From the NCBI GenBank assembly GCA_963837175.1, contig CAWIMJ010000046.1, positions 32,001 to 96,000 of the forward strand: a stretch of DNA of 64,000 nt. The letters are read 5' to 3'. Within the stretch, counting starts at the first letter, position 1. Every line of letters starts with the position of its first letter. This DNA is from an uncultured Nitrososphaeraceae archaeon. GTDB taxonomy: Archaea > Thermoproteota > Nitrososphaeria > Nitrososphaerales > Nitrososphaeraceae. The translations under genes and the position numbers were made by a program. The notes below the pieces were generated by a model. That model had not been told where the DNA came from. It worked only from the letters and a program-made list of their open reading frames with translations, and did not search any database. Below, one piece after another: positions 37,558-64,000 of the stretch.

Positions 37558-39719
37558 CTATTTTTGTGTCTTCAATTGCTCTTTTAACTTGGCTGCTACT
37601 GTTGGTCCGATTTTTGAAATAGCGGCAAGTTTTGAATCTGATACTCTCGCAAGTTTTCTGGTATCTGTAAGACCAGCATCATACAACGCTCGAGCTCGCA
37701 CCCTGCCAATTCCTTCAAGAGCAACAATCTGAATCAGTTCTTCTCTCACACCATATTTTATTCGCGTCCGAAGATTGTGTATTTCTGTGAGCAAATCTTC
37801 TCGTTTAAGCAATTTTGCAACTTCATATAATGAATATGTTAGCCAGCCACCAATCTCCACCATTCTATGCATATCCCCAGGTTCAACTCCAACCTTGTCG
37901 CTTATCATCCTGTCACTAGTTTCATCAATCCACTCATTGAGAGCCAATAGACTCCTCGAATAATCATATTCGCTTATTGGATAAAAGAGTTCATCGCTAT
38001 GATGTTGAATTAATGAATTCAATTCTTCAAAATCCTTTTTCCTCAGAGATAATTTTGGATAGAAATCTGCACTGGTCGTAATCATCTGAAGAAAACCTAA
38101 AGTGTAACTTTTATTGTTGCCATCATTTCTTTTCGTAGTCGTACAATCCAGCGAGCCTATTGCTTTTCTAAATTCTACTGCAGTTAAAGGATCAATATAT
38201 AGTAGTGTTGTTTTTCTTCCAAAGTCTGTAGCAATATATCTATCATTTTTACTTTTTATTAAATACTCTGCTTCAAGATAGCTTAAAGCAGCATCAACTT
38301 TGAAAACAACAGTATTTTTCTGATAATTCCTTGCAAATAATGTACTTTCGAATAGATGGTAAATTTCAATTTTTTTTATTCCAGGGACTCTTGCAACGGT
38401 ACTAAGAAGATGAACCCTTATTGCTCTGTCATTAATCAGTTGTGAGCGCAGAGGCTCTGGGTTACCTAGGATATATTGGTTATACAGATCCTCTGCACTA
38501 ACTCCTGATTCCGCTACTATTATTGCTTCTCCAAAAGTATCATATTGTGGTCTACCTGCTCTACCAGAGAGTTGTTTATATTCTAAAACACTGATGGGAA
38601 TATTTCCGCCATATCCAGCATCATAGCGTAAAATACTTGCTAGAATGATACGCCTTGCAGGCAAGTTAACACCTGCGGCCAGTGTTGGAGTGGCGGCTAA
38701 TAGCTTAATTATCCCTTTTTTGAATGACTCTTCTACAATCTCTCTACTTGTGGGTCCTAATCCCGCATGATGGAATGCTACACCTTTGGCTACGAGATGG
38801 GAAAGATTCCTTGTGAGTTCAGTATCGTCGCCTTTGTTGAGGATCTTCGATGATAGCTCAATTGTCCTCTCCTGCGCAGATTTATCGAGACTTTTATAAA
38901 CCGCTTCTGCAGCCTTTAGTGGCAAGAGAAAAAGCACGTTTTCGGGTGTCTGCGAAAATTAAAGCCTGTCCACCATTCTTTAGTGAATCAATTGCAATAT
39001 CTATTGCAGCAGAGGTAACACCAACAGAAGTCAGAATTTCGAATCTACTGCCATCATTCATGCGAATATTTCCATCCTCGTAGACTCCTTCTATCAACTT
39101 TGTTGGTCTCCAATTACTTTCAATTAATTCACATCCAAGCCAGTCAGCAATATCGTCAGAATTTGCAACTGTTGCACTTAACGCAAGAATTTGTGATTGC
39201 TGATACAGTTGACATATATTGGTTAGCATCATCTCCAAAGTAGGGCCGCGTTCTCGTTCCCCAATTAAATGAACTTCGTCAGCCACAAAAAGTCCTACAT
39301 CAGAAATCCATTCAGCCCCATGTCGCATAAGCGAATCCATTTTTTCATTTGTTAAAATAATAACATCTGCATCCTCTACATCCTTTCCAGACGAATCATA
39401 GTCGCTGGTAGCAATTTTGACTCTTGTTTTTATACCATTAATATCTAAATCCTCAAGAACATGAAAATCATGGTATTTTTCAGTAGCTAATGCCCTTAAT
39501 GGAGTAAGATAAATAACCTTTAGCCCTTTTTCGATTGTTTTTATTGCAGACCATCATTGCTATTAGTGTTTTACCACTCGCAGTAGGAGTGGTAACAAGC
39601 AAGTTTTTGCCCTCTAGAAGACCCTTTGACAGAGCAAGTTCCTGTGGTGGATAAAGTGAAGAGTATCCTAGTAAACTAAGCAAGATCTTTATTTTGGCGT
39701 CTGTTATTCTTATTGTCAT
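37558..39719 (-). CDS. hel308: Ski2-like helicase Hel308/Hjm (two +1 frameshifts at about 39550 and 38914)
   Basis: [52 protein letters not shown] and C-terminal HhH (GIGRVRAR), spread over three frames. Confidence 0.92.
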
Positions 39720-43470: not shown

Positions 43471-44566
43471 TCAATTATTAAGTTTGCTACTATTTTCAAC
43501 CTGATATCTCTCAGACACTATGATCTTTTTATTGATTATATCTTGTGTTAATTGATTTAACCTCGCTTTTACATCTTTAGGTACTTTATTCTCTAAGCCA
43601 TGGAATGGTGCTAGATAGACAATACCGTCTCCTACAGCCCCTTTGCCTATTTCTAGTCCAGGTTTAAATATTTCTCCTGTAAAATTGCCGGCTTGAACCA
43701 TTTTAACAGCTTGGTCATATGCCTTATCTACATCCAAGACAAACGAGGTCAAAACAGTGTCTGGCGCTAGTTTGTTCTGATCTGAGACCGCGCCAAATGC
43801 GTATATTCCCTTTTCTTTAGCAGCCTCAATAACACCTTGACCAGATGTATCAGCTACATGTAACAAAAAGTCAGCACTAGCATTTATTTGTAATATTGCT
43901 GCCTTCCTTTCCTTTAGATGGATTATCAAAATCATCTAAATATGTAACAAGCACTTTAACGTTGCGATTCACCAACTTTGCACCTTGCTTATAGCCTTCA
44001 AAAATGTTTATGAGGTTTGGATATGTGACGTCTCCACCAACATAACCAATCACATCTGTTTTTGACATCATCCCAGCAAGTGCTCCTAACAAAAAGGATC
44101 CTTCCTGCTCCAGTGGGAAAATGGAAGCAACATTGGTTGACTTAGCAAGACCAGTAAAAACTACAAATTTTGTATTTGGATAGTCTTTTCCTACCTTTAC
44201 AGCAGGGTCTCCCCATTCAAAACCATGAGCTATAATCAAGTCATAACCTTCATGGGCATAATCTCTTAATGTAGCCTCTATATTTGTAATTGCAACATTA
44301 TCTGTAAAGTCAACTTCGTGACCATATTTAGTTTTTATTGCTTGTGCTGCATTGTATGCAAATGCGCCCCATCCTGCATCACTAAATAAAGCATCAGTTA
44401 ATAATGCTATTTTTAGGTGCTTATTGTACACCACCATAATCTGATCTGATGATGCTTTTTCTGTAACAGCAGCAACAGTAAGTTGGAAAGGTTGACCAGG
44501 TATTACTACTGCTATTATTACTATACCTATTGCTATCATGGCTAAATGCTTTCCTTTTACACCCAT
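43471..44566 (-). CDS. BMP-family (PnrA/Med-like) solute-binding protein (one +1 frameshift at about 43903)
   Basis: N-terminal anchor; DAGWG, GYDLIIAHGFEW, EGSFLLGALAG, IGYVGG, FEGYKQGAK, GVIEAAKE and SDQNKLAPDTVLTS. Confidence 0.88.
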
Positions 44567-45691: not shown

Positions 45692-46816
45692 TTACTTAAC
45701 AAATGGATCAAAAGATGACATAATCAAATTTGCAATTTCTGGTCTCATCAAGTGTTCTGCTGGAATCTCACCAGAGATAACCATTTTTCTCATCTTTGTA
45801 CCACTTAGTTCTTCTCTCAATTCCGGTGTATGCGGACAGTTTCTTTCATTTGCATAGCTCAAACATTTCTTGCAATAGTAAAACGTTGGAAAGAAAAGCG
45901 GTGCAATTCCGAGATCCTGATAATCTTCAAAGATCTCTTGGGCTGCAAAAGGGTGATAATAGTTTCCAACACCTGCATGATCTCTTCCAACTATAAAGTG
46001 TGAACATCCGAAATTCTTTCTCATAATTGCATGATGAATTGCCTCTTTCGGTCCAGCATATCTCATTTCTGTATGAAGAGTTACAAACATAGATCTATTC
46101 TTGGGATAATAATTTTCTATCAATTTCTCATATGCTCCGAGAATTACTTCATCCTTAAAATCGCCAGATTTTTTTTTGCCTATTAATGGATTTATAAATA
46201 ATCCATCATAAATATTCAAGGCTGCCTTCTGCAACATTTCGTGAGCAATATGTGGAATATTTCTTGTCTGAAATCCTACTACAGTTTTCCAACCTCTCTT
46301 CTGAATTTCGGACCTAGTTTCAAAGGGGCTCATTCTATATTTTCTCAAAGGTGATTTTTGTATTCTCTTAATAACATCAATCTTGCCTTCTATAAATAGA
46401 TCTTTCATTCTTATCATATTTGAAACTCCAGGATGTTGTAGGTCATCTGTCTGATAAATTGCTTTTGCTGCAGCAAGTTTATCAAATGAATAAACATTCT
46501 CAACATGAAGAATTCCAAAATTTTCATTACTACTCAAACAAACTTCCCTGGCATCTTTCATCTTTATTGCTGTTTGCTCGTCTACATCCAAGATTATAGG
46601 AATAGTCCATGCTAAACCATTCTTCAAATGACCACATTTTATAATGCTCTGGAAGTCATCCTCACCTACAAATCCCTCCAGGGGGCTGAAGACCCCATCA
46701 GCAATATTTTCAATGTCATTTTGAAGATTATAATTGACATTAATTGAAAACATTCCGTCAATATTTTTTTTAGTAGTAAATCTGTTTATCAATCTGCCTC
46801 CATGAGGAGGTGGCAT
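45692..46816 (-). CDS. sat: Sulfate adenylyltransferase (ATP sulfurylase)
   Basis: PHGGRL, FSPLEGF, FQTRNIPHIAHE, RYAGPKEA, VGRDHAGVG, CKKC Zn motif and SGTKMR; start at 46816 or TTG 46840. Confidence 0.95.
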   Translation of the reverse strand: MPPPHGGRLINRFTTKKNIDGMFSINVNYNLQNDIENIADGVFSPLEGFVGEDDFQSIIKCGHLKNGLAWTIPIILDVDEQTAIKMKDAREVCLSSNENFGILHVENVYSFDKLAAAKAIYQTDDLQHPGVSNMIRMKDLFIEGKIDVIKRIQKSPLRKYRMSPFETRSEIQKRGWKTVVGFQTRNIPHIAHEMLQKAALNIYDGLFINPLIGKKKSGDFKDEVILGAYEKLIENYYPKNRSMFVTLHTEMRYAGPKEAIHHAIMRKNFGCSHFIVGRDHAGVGNYYHPFAAQEIFEDYQDLGIAPLFFPTFYYCKKCLSYANERNCPHTPELREELSGTKMRKMVISGEIPAEHLMRPEIANLIMSSFDPFVK

Positions 46817-46859
46817 ACTAGTGCTACATGCATATCCCAATAATAATTCCCTACTTGTG

Positions 46860-47612
46860 TTATTTTTTAGTGGGATCCCAATGCAGACCGCATTCTTTTT
46901 GTGTCGCATTTTCCCACCACCATCTACCTGCTCGTGGATCTTCCCCAGCATGAATAGCTCTTGTACATGGTTCACAACCTATGCTTGGATAACCACTATC
47001 ATGTAACTTATTATATGGAACATTATTTTTATGAATATAATCCCAGATCATTCCATTAGTCCAGTCTGCTAACGGATTAATCTTAGCAATACTGCCATGT
47101 GAAGAATCAATTTCAAGTTTATTGATATTAGTCCTAGTTATTGCCTGCTCCCTTCTCAGGCCAGTAATCCACCCATCCAGATTACTTAACGCTCTATTAA
47201 GTGGATGTACTTTTCTAATTTCGCAGCAAAGCTTTCGATTTTCAACACTTTCATACATCAAATTCATACCTTTTATTTTGACCATTTCTTCGATTTCTCT
47301 TTGTTCAGGAAAATATACTTCAATTTGTATATCATATTTTTTTCGTATCGCATCCATTACATCATAGGTTTCCTGGTTGAGTCTACCAGTATCCAATGTG
47401 AAAATTCTGGTTTTTTCTTTGTTGATTTTTACCATCATATGTATAATAATTACATCTTCAGCACCAAAACTTGATGCCAAAGCTATCTTCGGTGCATAAG
47501 CATTAATAGCCCATTCCAGGACTTCCATTGCAGATTTGTCCTCCATTTCTTTTGCAATTTTTTTGATCTGCAATTCAGTTGGTTTTAATATATCAACATT
47601 TGTTTCAGACAT
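46860..47612 (-). CDS. cysH: APS/PAPS reductase (Fe-S APS-reductase type)
   Basis: SSFG, DTG, CCEIRK, GLRREQ, YPSIGCEPCT, RAGRW and KECGLH. Confidence 0.95.
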   Translation of the reverse strand: MSETNVDILKPTELQIKKIAKEMEDKSAMEVLEWAINAYAPKIALASSFGAEDVIIIHMMVKINKEKTRIFTLDTGRLNQETYDVMDAIRKKYDIQIEVYFPEQREIEEMVKIKGMNLMYESVENRKLCCEIRKVHPLNRALSNLDGWITGLRREQAITRTNINKLEIDSSHGSIAKINPLADWTNGMIWDYIHKNNVPYNKLHDSGYPSIGCEPCTRAIHAGEDPRAGRWWWENATQKECGLHWDPTKK

Positions 47613-48113
47613 ATTTAATATTCAGAATAATAGAGTTATATTCATTGTCATTATATAGATATGATTTCCATATTTAGATAGTCACTGATTTTAATTGGAG
47701 ACGAGAGTCCAAAGTTTCAATAGATGATGGCATACTATTGGTATAATTCCCAAATCTACAACTTTTTGAGATTAAAGCATAATCATATCATCTCCTTCCT
47801 TCATTCCTCACATAAAGAAAAGGAAAGTATCTTAGAGAAAGAACAAGCCGATACTTTATATAGATAGAACTGAATGTTTACTGATAATGATTACTTTTCA
47901 TGTATAACAAAAATAAATGTAAATTAAAGCAGTTATTATCAACTATTTGGTAATCTATTTCATTGAATATAATAATAGATAAGAGTGATTTGTTAAGTTA
48001 ACACAGGCCTGAAATTTATTATATTATAGATAAAAGTTGTGTTTATTAAATAGTACTTTTCTATATATAATATTAATTAAACGAGGATTTGTGATTGTTA
48101 GGGGAGGTTATGA

Positions 48114-49523
48114 TTGTCCGGGGATTTTTGGGAACTTATAGAGGAATACAGACAGCTAGGTTTTGATCCCCTACGATGGATTCCAACTTGCTCAAATGAG
48201 ATAGACACTTATCTCTTCCAATCTTCATTGAAAAATATCAAGAGAAGCAACATAAAGATAAAACCCAATTGGTTTGATTCTTTCCATTATACAGAAGGCA
48301 AGGGTATTGAACTTACTAGAAGAGTATATAGTTTTGATAACCCAAAAATCGAAAAAGAAGTAGAAATCAAACGGGCACTTTCTATATTTCGCATTCATCT
48401 GAATACTGGTGAAAATTCAACATTATTGTCAAAAGCAATTCAGAGATTTATGAAAAATTTCTATTCGAAAGTATTAGTAAAGAAAGTAACTACTTCTTTA
48501 ACAGCATATCCTGACGCTCAATTTGCGCTTCTGGACTACATAGAATTACACAGAGGTGACAAGGTAGGATACACATCTGCTAATAATTCTGTTACAAATA
48601 TAACTGATCCAACTCATAGTCCAGATTCTGAGATACATAGTAACATCTCGTTGACAGCCGCAATGGAATATCTAAATCTTCTAGGATGTACTTCAGGCTT
48701 TAAAGTATTTCCTGTATATGATGCTCCAAATGAAAATATTTTGGATAAGATTAGAGAAAACCTTGATCGATTTACTTCTCGTTATAACTTAGCAATGGAA
48801 GACTATAGTTCGCTTAAAGTAGGCAAGTTATTCTTCGGTGCGACTGCAATTGCAAATACGCTTAAGGAATTACCTACACGATATAACCAATCGGAAGAAG
48901 GAATGCAAATCGTTCTTTCGAATAAATTGGGTTCAATGACAGCTGTAAGTCTTTACATGTTGACTAAAATGGATCATAACAACATAACTAAATTTGAGCA
49001 AAATGGTATTGGATTAGACGCACTTTCTGCTGCAAAAGATGAGGCAATGAAACGTCTAACTGAACCTCATTTCGCTCTTGGTAAAATAATTTCAACATAC
49101 TGTCCAGATTTTGAAACAGAGTTTGATAAACATGTCCACATAACTGCTGTTCATCCTGTTACAACAGATGGCATATTTGCGGTGGGAAAACTTGCAGAAT
49201 TGACAAATTCCCATATTGTAATTAACAAACTTCCAATGAAGTATGAAGAGGTTGCAAAGTTTGCAACAAGAGAATTTTTGATTGAGAATGCAACTGTATC
49301 TACAAACGGATGTCACCTGATCGTCGCAACAAAGGATGTAACAAATTACATCCTGGAAGAGTTACGGAAATATAATTTTGAACCAACAGTGATTGGATTT
49401 ATATCAAAGAAAGGAGAAGCGAGTGTGGCAATTGGAAATGAGATCAGCGAATATGTGGCTTCCAAAGCTAAACTTGCTAGATTAAATTGTCTAGCTCAAG
49501 CAGAAAGTCAACAGCATGAATAA
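48114..49523 (+). CDS. SelD-related putative sulfur-metabolism protein (PurM/SelD fold), divergent
   Basis: N-terminal EYRQLGFDPLRWIPTCSNEID resembles the archaeal SelD-like GxNPLxxxxGCxVKxD; ITDPT, FPVYDAP, FFGATAIA, VTTDGIF and STNG motifs. Confidence 0.7.
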   Translation: MSGDFWELIEEYRQLGFDPLRWIPTCSNEIDTYLFQSSLKNIKRSNIKIKPNWFDSFHYTEGKGIELTRRVYSFDNPKIEKEVEIKRALSIFRIHLNTGENSTLLSKAIQRFMKNFYSKVLVKKVTTSLTAYPDAQFALLDYIELHRGDKVGYTSANNSVTNITDPTHSPDSEIHSNISLTAAMEYLNLLGCTSGFKVFPVYDAPNENILDKIRENLDRFTSRYNLAMEDYSSLKVGKLFFGATAIANTLKELPTRYNQSEEGMQIVLSNKLGSMTAVSLYMLTKMDHNNITKFEQNGIGLDALSAAKDEAMKRLTEPHFALGKIISTYCPDFETEFDKHVHITAVHPVTTDGIFAVGKLAELTNSHIVINKLPMKYEEVAKFATREFLIENATVSTNGCHLIVATKDVTNYILEELRKYNFEPTVIGFISKKGEASVAIGNEISEYVASKAKLARLNCLAQAESQQHE

Positions 49524-61425: not shown

Positions 61426-62772
61426 TCACATTATGCCCCTTATGAAGGTTCTATAGATGTATAGAGCATCTTCTTCGTCTTTTGCACCTACTATTGTTGC
61501 AGCACCGCTTGTCAGAAAACTTACAGACAATTTACTAGAATTGGTACTTTCCGCGGTTATTCCTAGGCTACCCCTAGTTTTAACCTGGTATCCGAGCAAT
61601 TCTGCATTTTCTATTATTTTCATCAGGTCGATTGGCAAAGATAGTTCGGATGGAGTAACAGTGTATGTTCTCTTGCCCATATCTCTTCCGCATAACTCTT
61701 CTATTAGCAATTGCTGTTGTGCAACTTTTACCGTATCCATCCTTTTTTTCGATCCACAGGAAGGACACTCTTCATGCCTAAACATTTGAACTTTCTCAAA
61801 TGAAAGTTCATTCAAGTCCATATAAAGAAGATTATTTACAAGCGCAGGTTTTTGGCCTGTAATTATCTTGACTGCCTCTGAGACTTGTATGCCGCCGACC
61901 AAATATAATATAGATGGATGTATACCCTCCGTACTACACGTAGGCATATCATCCTCCAATAACGCAGGAAACATACATCGCAGGCACGCAGATTTATTTG
62001 GCAATATAGTACACACGGAACCTAATGTGCCTAGGGCACCTGCATAGATAAATGGTATATTATGTTTTATACATGCGTCGTTTAGAGCATATCTGGCATC
62101 AATGCTGTCAAGTGCATCTATAACAACATCAAATCCTTCTACAAGACTCTCTGCTGTATATTTGGTAACGGAGATTGGAACTGCTTCAATTTCAACTGCA
62201 GTATTCATTTTTTTTAATCGTTGTGCAGCTGCTTCAACCTTGACTTTTCCAATATCGTCTTCTGCATAAAGGTGTTGCCTGTGTAAATTTGAAATTTCAA
62301 TAACATCTCTATCCACTATTCTTAGTTTACCAACTCCCATGGCGGTTAGTTGAGTGACAACAGGATTTCCAATCCCACCAACACCAACAACGCACATTTT
62401 TGCATTACGTAGTTTTTCCATTCCAATAAACCCAATCTCTTCAAGCATTATCTGTCTTGAGTACCGTTGCATATCATTACTTGTCAGCTCTGCTCCACCA
62501 GCCACTGCTGGTAGTATGTATATAGAATCACCATCAATAAGCGACATCGTCATACCATTGCTATTAAAGCGCATATTTTTGCCATTAATGTAAATGTTGA
62601 TCAGAGCACGTGGCTTGCCATTAAGATCAAACACCTTAAGTTTAAAGTCCTCCCCCATCTGATTGGAAACTTTGTTAAATGCATCTTGCAAATCACTGGA
62701 TTCTAACAAAATTTTTTTCTCTCCTAAACCTTTATTTAATACTGAGGGTATCACGAATTCAACTTTGGCCAT
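61426..62772 (-). CDS. moeB: ThiS/MoaD ubiquitin-like domain fused to ThiF/MoeB E1 adenylyltransferase, plus C-terminal domain
   Basis: N-terminal beta-grasp ending ILPAVAGG; RYSRQI, GVGGIG, SNLHRQ, CLRC, active-site PTC and CPSC; C-terminal LCGR...GAKDEEDA. Confidence 0.9.
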   Translation of the reverse strand: MAKVEFVIPSVLNKGLGEKKILLESSDLQDAFNKVSNQMGEDFKLKVFDLNGKPRALINIYINGKNMRFNSNGMTMSLIDGDSIYILPAVAGGAELTSNDMQRYSRQIMLEEIGFIGMEKLRNAKMCVVGVGGIGNPVVTQLTAMGVGKLRIVDRDVIEISNLHRQHLYAEDDIGKVKVEAAAQRLKKMNTAVEIEAVPISVTKYTAESLVEGFDVVIDALDSIDARYALNDACIKHNIPFIYAGALGTLGSVCTILPNKSACLRCMFPALLEDDMPTCSTEGIHPSILYLVGGIQVSEAVKIITGQKPALVNNLLYMDLNELSFEKVQMFRHEECPSCGSKKRMDTVKVAQQQLLIEELCGRDMGKRTYTVTPSELSLPIDLMKIIENAELLGYQVKTRGSLGITAESTNSSKLSVSFLTSGAATIVGAKDEEDALYIYRTFIRGIM

Positions 62773-62799
62773 TTCTGTGTTATCACCATTTTTACATGA

Positions 62800-64000
62800 T
62801 CATCTAATCATTGCTGAAACTATTTGTACGTCTGGTTTTACAGTGTTAAATTTTGGAAGTACATCTATAATTGACTCGGTAGCCTTAAGTCCGTTACCTG
62901 TGATATAGCAAACTACTTTTTCATCTTTGTCTATTTTACATTCTTCAATCAACTTTCGAAGTACCGCTACACATACTCCACCTGCAGGTTCTGTGAATAT
63001 ACCTTCTGTTTTAGCAAGCATTAGTATTCCATCAACAATTTCTTCATCTGTAGCTTCTTCTGCGAGTCCATTATATTGGTTCAATCTTTTCAGAACATAT
63101 GGTCCATCACCAGGGTCACCTATTGCAAGACTTTTTGCAATTGTCTTAGGCCTTTCTACGGGAACAACTTCAATTTTTTTCTTAAAGGCTTCGACCACTG
63201 GAGCACATCCATGAGGTTGTGCAGCCGTTATCTTTAGGTTTGCTAGACTATCAACTAAACCAAGATCAAGCAGCTCTTCAAATCCTTTGCAAATTGCATT
63301 TAACATTGCTCCACTTCCAACCGGAATTATTAGATTGTCAGGAACCTCCCAATTTAGCTGCTCGGCTACCTCATAGGCAAGTGTCTTCGAGCCTTCAACA
63401 TAATATGGTCGCATATTAATATTGACTATACCAATGCCTTTAGAGTCTCCTATTACAGATGCAACCCTATTTGCATCGTCATAAGTTCCGTCTACTGCTA
63501 CGAATTCAGCTCCGTATGATAGTGCTTGCGCTATCTTTACCTTTTCAATGTCAGATGGTGAAAAAATATAACAAGGCAATTCTGCTTTTGCAGCATGGGC
63601 GGCAGTTGCAGAGGCTAGATTACCTGTAGACGCACAACCCACGGCTTTTAATTTGGTTTCTTTGGCTCTCGAAACAGCTACGCCAGCAGGCCTATCCTTA
63701 AAAGAAAATGTTGGATTTACAGAATCGTTTTTAATAAATAAGTTTTTCATCCCGCCTATTTGTTTACCAAGTCCGCTTGCTTTTTGTAACGGAGTGAAAC
63801 CAGCACTTAGATCTACAATATTGCTTTTATTAGCAATAGGTAACAGTTCAAAATATCGCCAATATGTTTTCACATCCCTTGAGGAAAAAGTTGTCCTCTT
63901 TAGATTGAAAGAAAAGTTGTAAATGACATCAAGTGGACCAAAACATTCTTCACATATGTATCTAAATTGTGGAGCATATTCTTTTCCACACTCTCTGCAT
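62800..64000 (-). CDS. thrC: Threonine synthase family PLP enzyme (5' end beyond the window)
   Basis: In-frame N-terminal CRECG...CEECFGPL; NPTFSFKDR (PLP Lys), CASTGN, EGSKT and ITGNGLK. Confidence 0.9.
   Translation of the reverse strand, partial: CRECGKEYAPQFRYICEECFGPLDVIYNFSFNLKRTTFSSRDVKTYWRYFELLPIANKSNIVDLSAGFTPLQKASGLGKQIGGMKNLFIKNDSVNPTFSFKDRPAGVAVSRAKETKLKAVGCASTGNLASATAAHAAKAELPCYIFSPSDIEKVKIAQALSYGAEFVAVDGTYDDANRVASVIGDSKGIGIVNINMRPYYVEGSKTLAYEVAEQLNWEVPDNLIIPVGSGAMLNAICKGFEELLDLGLVDSLANLKITAAQPHGCAPVVEAFKKKIEVVPVERPKTIAKSLAIGDPGDGPYVLKRLNQYNGLAEEATDEEIVDGILMLAKTEGIFTEPAGGVCVAVLRKLIEECKIDKDEKVVCYITGNGLKATESIIDVLPKFNTVKPDVQIVSAMIR

Follow-up and report, generated by a model that had tools for sequence, protein, structure and literature searches.

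Archaeal SelD-like proteins form a family that its original report found only in Sulfolobales and Thermoproteales (Li et al., 2014; BMC Genomics 15:908, PMC4210487). According to the same report, all SelD-like proteins keep a C-x-x-K motif, four aspartates and an asparagine, and their genes neighbour those for TusA/SirA-like, DsrE/Prx-like and rhodanese proteins and sometimes an acylphosphatase; in SelD itself, the C-x-x-K lysine, Asn87 and the four aspartates are essential or catalytically important (Li et al., 2014). A 2026 review, in its passage on the family, still treats the role of the family as speculation and cites only the 2014 hypothesis. Here we analyse a SelD-related protein encoded in a 64,000-nucleotide (nt) stretch of DNA from an uncultured Nitrososphaeraceae archaeon (contig CAWIMJ010000046.1, positions 32,001 to 96,000; hereafter the window, in whose own numbering coordinates are given). 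Its gene stands head-to-head with the sulfate-activation genes cysH and sat, and the protein has lost residues of the SelD catalytic set while its fold is predicted to persist. The literature searched holds no description of a SelD-like variant from ammonia-oxidising archaea (AOA), with the proviso that Table S1 and Figures S1 and S2 of Li et al. (2014) could list further taxa.

A preliminary description of the locus had reported a SelD-related open reading frame (ORF) of 469 amino acids (aa), divergent from genes for adenosine 5′-phosphosulfate (APS) reductase and ATP sulfurylase, with no sulfite reductase adjacent. The three ORFs are as described there, and both NIR_SIR genes of the genome lie on other contigs. 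The genome's TusA genes likewise lie on contigs other than that of the window. The locus comprises:

48114..49523, plus strand: SelD-related protein of the degenerate Nitrososphaeraceae type, 469 aa, TTG start, matching NF038049
46860..47612, minus strand: cysH, thioredoxin-dependent APS reductase, 250 aa, matching TIGR02055 and PF01507
45692..46840, minus strand: sat, ATP sulfurylase with PUA_2 and ATP-sulfurylase domains (NF003166, PF14306 and PF01747), probable TTG start at 46840
47613..48113, no strand: divergent intergenic region between cysH and the SelD-related gene, 501 nt, both ends conserved, lengthened by an insertion of ~250 nt in the middle when compared with relatives from the same genus

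The SelD-related protein scores 304.9 bits against the NCBIfam model NF038049 (SelD_rel_HyperS; cut-off 250), whose title is "SelD-related putative sulfur metabolism protein". Residues 5-458 align with positions 3-464 of the 465-position model, and the same match is recovered in a profile search of the whole genome. This hidden Markov model search bears out the earlier suggestion that the protein is a member of the archaeal SelD-like family. By score it is not a SelD, reaching 18 bits on the SelD models (TIGR00476/NF010705) against a cut-off of 291; the HypE model gives 21.3 bits over the C-terminal half, far under its cut-off, and Pfam has no match for it. The search for a second C-x-x-K paralog that the preliminary description proposed comes back empty, as NF038049 gives a single match in the genome. 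No canonical selD was found there either, the top TIGR00476 match (33.8 bits) being ThiL, in a search that did not extend to other selenium-utilisation genes.

An AlphaFold2 model built from 83 sequences has a predicted local distance difference test score (pLDDT) of 92.9 and a predicted template modelling score (pTM) of 0.92. Its best Foldseek match in the Protein Data Bank (PDB) is human SEPHS1 (3fd5; E 5.9e-15, 15% identity), followed by the SEPHS1 chain of 9hjt, by Leishmania, E. coli and Aquifex SelD, and then by HypE, ThiL and PurM. There are 130 PDB matches at E <= 0.001, and among the matches listed are SelD/SEPHS1, HypE, ThiL and AIR synthetase entries. The two-domain PurM/SelD fold that had been supposed from the sequence is thus retained in the predicted model. 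Two further similarities were considered. Reading the insertion of ~90-100 aa in the N-domain as a second N-domain copy is possible but finds no support in the sequence (hhalign of residues 40-148 against 149-262, probability 0.9%, E 0.063). The helix-turn-helix (HTH) similarity of residues 60-134 to DesR is rejected, as it has an E of 0.45 and falls in a stretch that is mostly beta strands in the model.

The residues of the active site have fared differently. A protein search over 1.84 billion representatives gave 125 clusters, of which 54 full-length ones were aligned (alignment A1), and SelD residues were mapped through profile matches to E. coli SelD (3u0o) and HypE (2z1e) together with this alignment. 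Counts for the Nitrososphaeraceae clade are taken from 125 clade sequences, and counts at the cysteine position from the 78 loci with an N-terminus among 80 named loci. At residues 22-29 the protein reads W-I-P-T-C-S-N-E. C-x-x-K, mostly as G-C-[AS]-V-K, stands at this place in 46 of the 53 aligned rows (window included), and the seven that deviate are the window, four Nitrososphaeraceae-type representatives and the high-GC P0136 and P0150. The replacement of GCxxK by TCSNE, first seen in this one sequence, is confirmed as C26-S-N-E29. The SelD positions correspond as follows:

SelD Cys17: Cys26
SelD Lys20: Glu29; position 29 in the clade is E in 83, Q in 41 and K in 1 (n=125)
SelD Asp51: Asp55, kept
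SelD Asp68: Asp165, kept
SelD Asn87: position 182, Ala in the window protein and variable across the clade
SelD Asp91: Tyr186; position 186 in the clade is N in 89, Y in 15 and L in 12 (n=125)
SelD Asp227: Pro348, Pro in 125/125 clade sequences

The family's own GKGH, NND and T-R-P-x-G motifs are also gone in the clade (alignment A1). Even the cysteine is not universal, being Phe in 18/78 loci and Ser in 1/78; in addition, a Nitrososphaeraceae cluster of 262 members has a representative with Ser at this position. The loci with Phe form a subclade (L080-L098 minus L085, 18 loci) that reads W-L-S-T-F-S-N-E and is 44-46% identical to the window protein; cysH is adjacent in 17 of the 18, and L091 is too short upstream to judge. 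Other positions are fixed. Cys192 is found in all 125 clade sequences and is Cys in some canonical representatives too, and Cys400 and His401 (each in 124/125) are specific to the clade, canonical members having Gly-Ala there. These three residues may constitute a putative shared site in the pocket. With the lysine and the equivalents of Asn87, Asp91 and Asp227 lost, and the cysteine lost in a subclade, ATP-driven activation of the SelD type is unlikely in this clade, and we infer that SelD-type catalysis has been lost. The preliminary description, which knew of the lysine, had proposed an uncharacterised sulfur-activation step; losses that extend to Asn87, Asp91, Asp227 and, in the subclade, the cysteine speak against it. 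Of the two alternatives it offered, changed chemistry or a non-catalytic partner, the second fits better in its non-catalytic half, and the partner would still be an inferred one. What is new relative to that description includes the degeneration beyond the lysine, the Cys-His pair and the linkage with cysH-sat in most genera of the family.

The SelD-related gene is a working gene under strong purifying selection. Its pairwise dN/dS against four relatives is 0.11-0.18, compared with 0.10-0.15 for CysH and 0.12-0.16 for Sat in the same genomes (Nei-Gojobori script). It is present in 112 of the 121 genomes sampled from the family; restricting the sample to a completeness of 90% or more leaves 81 genomes, of which 80 carry it. 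Four soil metatranscriptome runs, each from a different study, yield contigs that match all three genes with 0-1 differences, among them a 424-nt piece at 48113-48536. Such libraries may hold DNA, and the contigs give neither strand nor level. No contig covers 47612-47995 in any of the four runs, and this uncovered part is not evidence.

At the level of the order, the gene occurs in family f1 (49/49) and, at ~550 bits, in f14 (7/7) and f10 (1/1), and was not found in the other 13 families of the sample (for example 0/49 in f12 and 0/47 in f9). The canonical genes of f14 and f10 keep different company. Three contexts annotated with Pfam hold tandem-rhodanese, TusA (one or two copies) and acylphosphatase genes, a YeeE-like Sulf_transp permease, beta-propellers and a NIR_SIR sulfite reductase, and when CysH and Sat from the window served as tblastn queries, no cysH or sat turned up within ~6 kb in any of the 8 loci. 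The linkage with cysH-sat therefore accompanies the degenerate type and is limited to the Nitrososphaeraceae. In an IQ-TREE phylogeny of 48 rows, drawn with a midpoint root for display only, the Nitrososphaeraceae form a clade (100/100) on a long stem of 0.94, nested within the canonical family. Its sister group is P0136 and P0150 (98/94), and the two combined are in turn sister to the canonical Nitrososphaerales group (100/99). The motif in P0136 and P0150 is G-C-S-V-E; GKGH and NND have been lost in them, and T-R-P and the Asp227 equivalent are kept. This sister group, including loci L132-L135, reads G-C-S-[VT]-[EA] and comes from contigs of 67-71% GC. Searching with P0150 gave no close relative in the class-level sample (best 27-32% identity) and no loci in a metagenome scan, and the scan with alignment A5 gave the four loci. 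No sulfur genes lie near L132-L135: L133-L135 are flanked by a UvrD/PD-(D/E)XK helicase-nuclease gene, by a gene resembling the primase small subunit, or by both, and the one neighbour of L132 has no Pfam match.

Nor is the linkage with cysH-sat, noted at first from a single genome, peculiar to it. We compared the coordinates of NF038049 and TIGR02055 matches in the sample of 121 family genomes, which includes the unpublished G077 and G035 (both with the genes on different contigs). Both genes were found in 108 genomes, where they are adjacent and divergent in 79, spread over 13 of 18 genera, with 266-1559 nt between the profile matches. Nine genomes carry them on one contig in another arrangement (4.5-5 kb apart in 7/7 genomes of g3 and in the one genome of g10, 10.5 kb apart in a single g2 genome), and 20 carry them on different contigs. 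The SelD-related gene alone was found in 4 genomes, a cysH fragment alone in 1 and neither in 8. The 80 named loci come from Nitrososphaera, Nitrosopolaris and unnamed Nitrososphaeraceae metagenome-assembled genomes and overlap with the genome sample, so the two sets are not independent; cysH-sat is adjacent in 67 of them, within 5 kb in 2, and 6 are too short to tell. At one locus (L050) a HIT-family (HinT-like) nucleotide hydrolase gene (L050:4025-4465, plus strand) lies directly 3′ of the SelD-related gene, with cysH-sat 4.8 kb downstream. HIT enzymes act on AMP derivatives, and this gene is possibly relevant to an APS or AMP ligand. Predicted as a complex, the SelD-related protein (alignment A3) and CysH (A4) scored 0.00 in two runs made without controls, a score that counts neither for nor against binding.

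Taken together, we lean tentatively, and with slightly less than even confidence, towards a SelD-fold protein that no longer makes phospho-chalcogenides and instead serves as a non-phosphotransferase accessory of sulfate assimilation, carrying or buffering a ligand. Under this proposal, an ancestor within the archaeal SelD-like sulfur family would have lost the residues for holding Mg-ATP and for making a phospho-chalcogenide. In the Nitrososphaeraceae the protein would then have been kept under purifying selection, gaining Cys400-His401 and retaining Cys192, and its gene would have become fixed beside cysH-sat with a compact divergent promoter region in common. The remodelled pocket would most likely bind a pathway intermediate (APS or AMP, sulfite, or reduced sulfur) and hand it on or buffer it. 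A narrower version is doubtful: the protein could be a dedicated accessory of ATP sulfurylase and APS reductase in soil ammonia oxidisers whose putative Cys192/Cys400/His401 site binds APS, sulfite or a sulfo- or persulfide intermediate, pulling the unfavourable activation of sulfate forward or shielding the cell from free sulfite, a need that marine AOA, with abundant sulfate, would not have.

Several observations weigh against an accessory role, and they touch both halves of the argument. As to catalysis, Asp55, Asp141, Asp165, Asp203 and His342 stay conserved in the clade and Glu185 (119 E and 5 D of 125) adjoins the lost Asp91 position, so that a different Mg-ATP site is possible. The protein could then still be an ATP-dependent sulfur-activating enzyme with a rebuilt site, in which Asp55, Asp141, Asp165, Asp203 and Glu185 hold Mg-ATP and Cys192, Cys400 and His401 receive the sulfur substrate, acting on what the cysH-sat branch produces, or on sulfide. 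Such an enzyme would explain why canonical and degenerate members alike show little or no variation at five acidic residues and His342, why the protein is as strongly selected as the enzymes encoded next to it and why the fold is fully retained at high model confidence, and it would suit the sulfur-trafficking contexts of the family as a whole. It would have to work, however, with four residues that are essential or catalytically important in SelD (the C-x-x-K lysine, Asn87 and two of the four aspartates) replaced clade-wide, one of them by proline, and in 18 of the 78 loci with phenylalanine in place of the cysteine. In addition, a profile built from the Nitrososphaeraceae clade alone retrieves no SelD, HypE, ThiL or other PurM-family enzyme from the PDB, and thus shows no sequence similarity to the solved enzymes of this fold. 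On balance we regard a surviving ATP-dependent enzyme as rather unlikely.

As to the pathway, sister AOA families possess cysH (48/49 in f12, 10/10 in f8 and 7/7 in f3) but have no SelD-related gene, which means that the APS reductase pathway does not generally need the protein. Within the Nitrososphaeraceae, the gene is unlinked from cysH in two genera, lying on a different contig in 12/12 genomes of g9 and 4/4 of g12. Five named loci with at least 900 nt upstream have no cysH there, and the annotated unlinked loci L054 and L067 have no sulfur gene nearby. One genome of genus g15 (G061, 96% complete; C24, L136) keeps the SelD-related gene and has no cysH, either in the 850 nt upstream or genome-wide at E <= 1e-20. 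Furthermore, related genomes are not independent, and the linkage may reflect few events. The protein might accordingly have a function unrelated to sulfate assimilation, for instance in another sulfur or nucleotide pathway, with the adjacency a matter of synteny inherited within one family; the persistence of the gene in g9, g12 and G061, the surroundings of L054 and L067, and the helicase-nuclease and primase-like neighbours of the closest relatives outside the Nitrososphaeraceae (on the 67-71% GC contigs) would all agree with this. We judge it improbable all the same. Inherited synteny fits less well with an adjacency that survives in lineages whose proteins are only 44-46% identical, or with broken pairs that, where on one contig, stay within 5 kb in g3 (7/7) and g10. 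Moreover, 8 genomes lack both genes and 5 lack only one, a figure that genome incompleteness together with adjacency inflates.

The accessory proposal supposes a shared promoter region, and the spacer between cysH and the SelD-related gene bears on this. The 501-nt spacer contains no credible ORF. In three same-genus relatives it measures 249-257 nt with conserved ends, the window having ~250 nt extra at ~47700-47990; in another relative (L033) this position is taken by a different insertion of ~520 nt. Spacer lengths over 67 loci range from 123 to 1003 nt, with 123-149 nt in Nitrososphaera-type loci. Ahead of the SelD-related gene two elements stand out:

48036..48067, plus strand: promoter-like block AAGTTGTGTTTATTAA...TCTATATA preceding the SelD-related gene, with putative B recognition element (BRE)/TATA-like and initiator-like boxes
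48101..48107, plus strand: Shine-Dalgarno-like GGGGAGG, 7-13 nt ahead of the TTG start

We take the first of these to be a BRE/TATA-like element and initiator-like box from its resemblance to the archaeal promoter consensus. An alignment of 24 loci with a TTTATTA box and the window gives, in order, AAGTTGTTTATTAA, ~10 nt, TCTATATA, ~25-30 nt, TAGTGATTG[CT]TAGGAGAG and the TTG start. The combination of TAGGAGAG/GGGGAGG with a TTG behind it is conserved between genera. A TTTATTA box lies at most 120 nt from the start in 51 of 80 loci, including two in which cysH is ~4.8 kb away, and AACAA[AG]TA[A]TTATAAG precedes cysH on the other side. The conserved blocks probably represent back-to-back archaeal promoters, and co-regulation of the SelD-related gene with cysH-sat would be consistent with this arrangement. 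A riboswitch or structured leader was sought and not found: Rfam gives only a chance microRNA match (E 0.7), and RNAalifold on 25 leaders yields -0.05 kcal/mol, with 6 pairs that show no real covariation.

Translation starts in the locus are also conserved. The TTG of the SelD-related gene (ATTGTCT; 48114) is kept across genera, as is that of sat (46840; 35/48 relatives by our own start-calling), and this conservation suggests deliberately weak translation initiation.

Divergently transcribed regulators often tune the adjacent genes, and the protein could likewise be a sensor or regulator, a ligand-binding pseudoenzyme that adjusts the expression or activity of cysH-sat. The divergent layout with its compact shared promoter region would serve such a role, a weak TTG start conserved across genera fits a protein of low abundance, and a non-catalytic SelD paralog acting as a transcription-complex scaffold is known in the PDB in SEPHS1 (9hjt, among the top fold matches). 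No DNA-binding domain was found, however, given the absence of a Pfam match and the mostly beta-stranded stretch that resembles DesR, so any regulation would perhaps run through another protein; and the gene persists unlinked in two genera. We consider regulation decidedly improbable, and retain the carrier or buffer as the preferred role.

Both neighbouring genes score above their profile cut-offs. On TIGR02055 (APS_reductase; cut-off 235.3) CysH reaches 280.8 bits; it also matches PF01507, and its translation carries a CC...CxxC cluster motif and a C-terminal ECGLH that are invariant in 24 relatives. Sat scores 480.5 bits on NF003166 (cut-off 387). As first listed, the sat ORF (45692-46975, minus strand, GTG at 46975) overlaps cysH by 116 nt. 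The family match begins only at residue 53-57 of this ORF, relatives have a TTG start 8-9 codons ahead of PxPHGG, and the window sat has a TTG at codon 46, so the start is more likely at 46840 (45692-46840); an alternative is the ATG at 46816. On its other flank, opposite cysH-sat, the SelD-related gene adjoins an ABC-2 permease gene.

Elsewhere in the window, a PnrA/Bmp-like ATP-binding cassette (ABC) substrate-binding gene (43471-44566, minus strand) is split into two overlapping ORFs of 229 aa (profile positions 3-174) and 154 aa (172-299 of 301) by a frameshift or an assembly error. An archaeal helicase gene (37558-39340, minus strand) is apparently broken: a 148-aa ORF has no more than the end of the DEAD domain, and the 459-aa ORF that comes next carries Helicase_C, archaeal helicase domain 4 and HHH_5. 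At 61426-63873 (minus strand), a MoaD/ThiS-like domain fused to a ThiF/MoeB/UbaA-type E1 (448 aa) adjoins a threonine-synthase-family pyridoxal phosphate enzyme (TIGR00260, 301 bits); these genes look like a sulfur-incorporation pair working through a protein thiocarboxylate, 12 kb from the SelD-related gene.

Although the SelD-like family was described in 2014, its role is still a matter of speculation, and the clade described here amounts to a natural experiment, the fold without the SelD catalytic set, near-universal and strongly constrained in the main soil AOA family and tied to the genes for the first two steps of sulfate assimilation. If the protein is an accessory or carrier, it would be a new component of assimilatory sulfate reduction in the organisms of soil nitrification, and a second, independent case of a SelD paralog turned non-enzyme, after animal SEPHS1. 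The JGI label "selenophosphate synthase" is misleading for proteins of this clade, and the idea of a thiophosphate synthase should not be extended to them either.

Among the known systems, HypE and ThiL are the most distant. They share the fold and are the next-best structural matches after SelD and SEPHS1, and the C-terminal half of the protein aligns weakly to HypE; their profile scores are far under the cut-offs, and the genome has a ThiL of its own. With SelD (TIGR00476/NF010705), the protein shares the PurM-superfamily fold, the best structural matches and a loop cysteine that aligns with Cys17, but it scores 18 bits where 291 are required and has replaced the equivalents of Lys20, Asn87, Asp91 and Asp227.

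SEPHS1 is a conserved, non-catalytic SelD paralog of animals, without the catalytic selenocysteine or cysteine chemistry, and in structure it comes closest (3fd5, 3fd6, and as a scaffold in 9hjt; E 5.9e-15). It differs in being eukaryotic, only 15% identical and the product of an independent loss, and in keeping its nucleotide site, with ADP and AMPCP according to the titles of PDB entries, whereas metal-ligand positions are lost here.

The archaeal SelD-like family remains the nearest relative. The window protein departs from it in having no equivalents of C-x-x-K, Asn87, Asp91 and Asp227, which Li et al. (2014) state that all members keep, in its cysH-sat neighbours in place of TusA, DsrE-like and rhodanese genes, and in its host, a mesophilic soil AOA as opposed to the Sulfolobales and Thermoproteales of that report. 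Canonical members from its own order reach ~550 bits on NF038049, compared with 305 bits here. It shares with the family a full-length score above the cut-off, the fold as modelled, the insertion of ~90 residues in the N-domain and linkage to sulfur genes, and its position in the family tree is an internal one, supported at 100/99.

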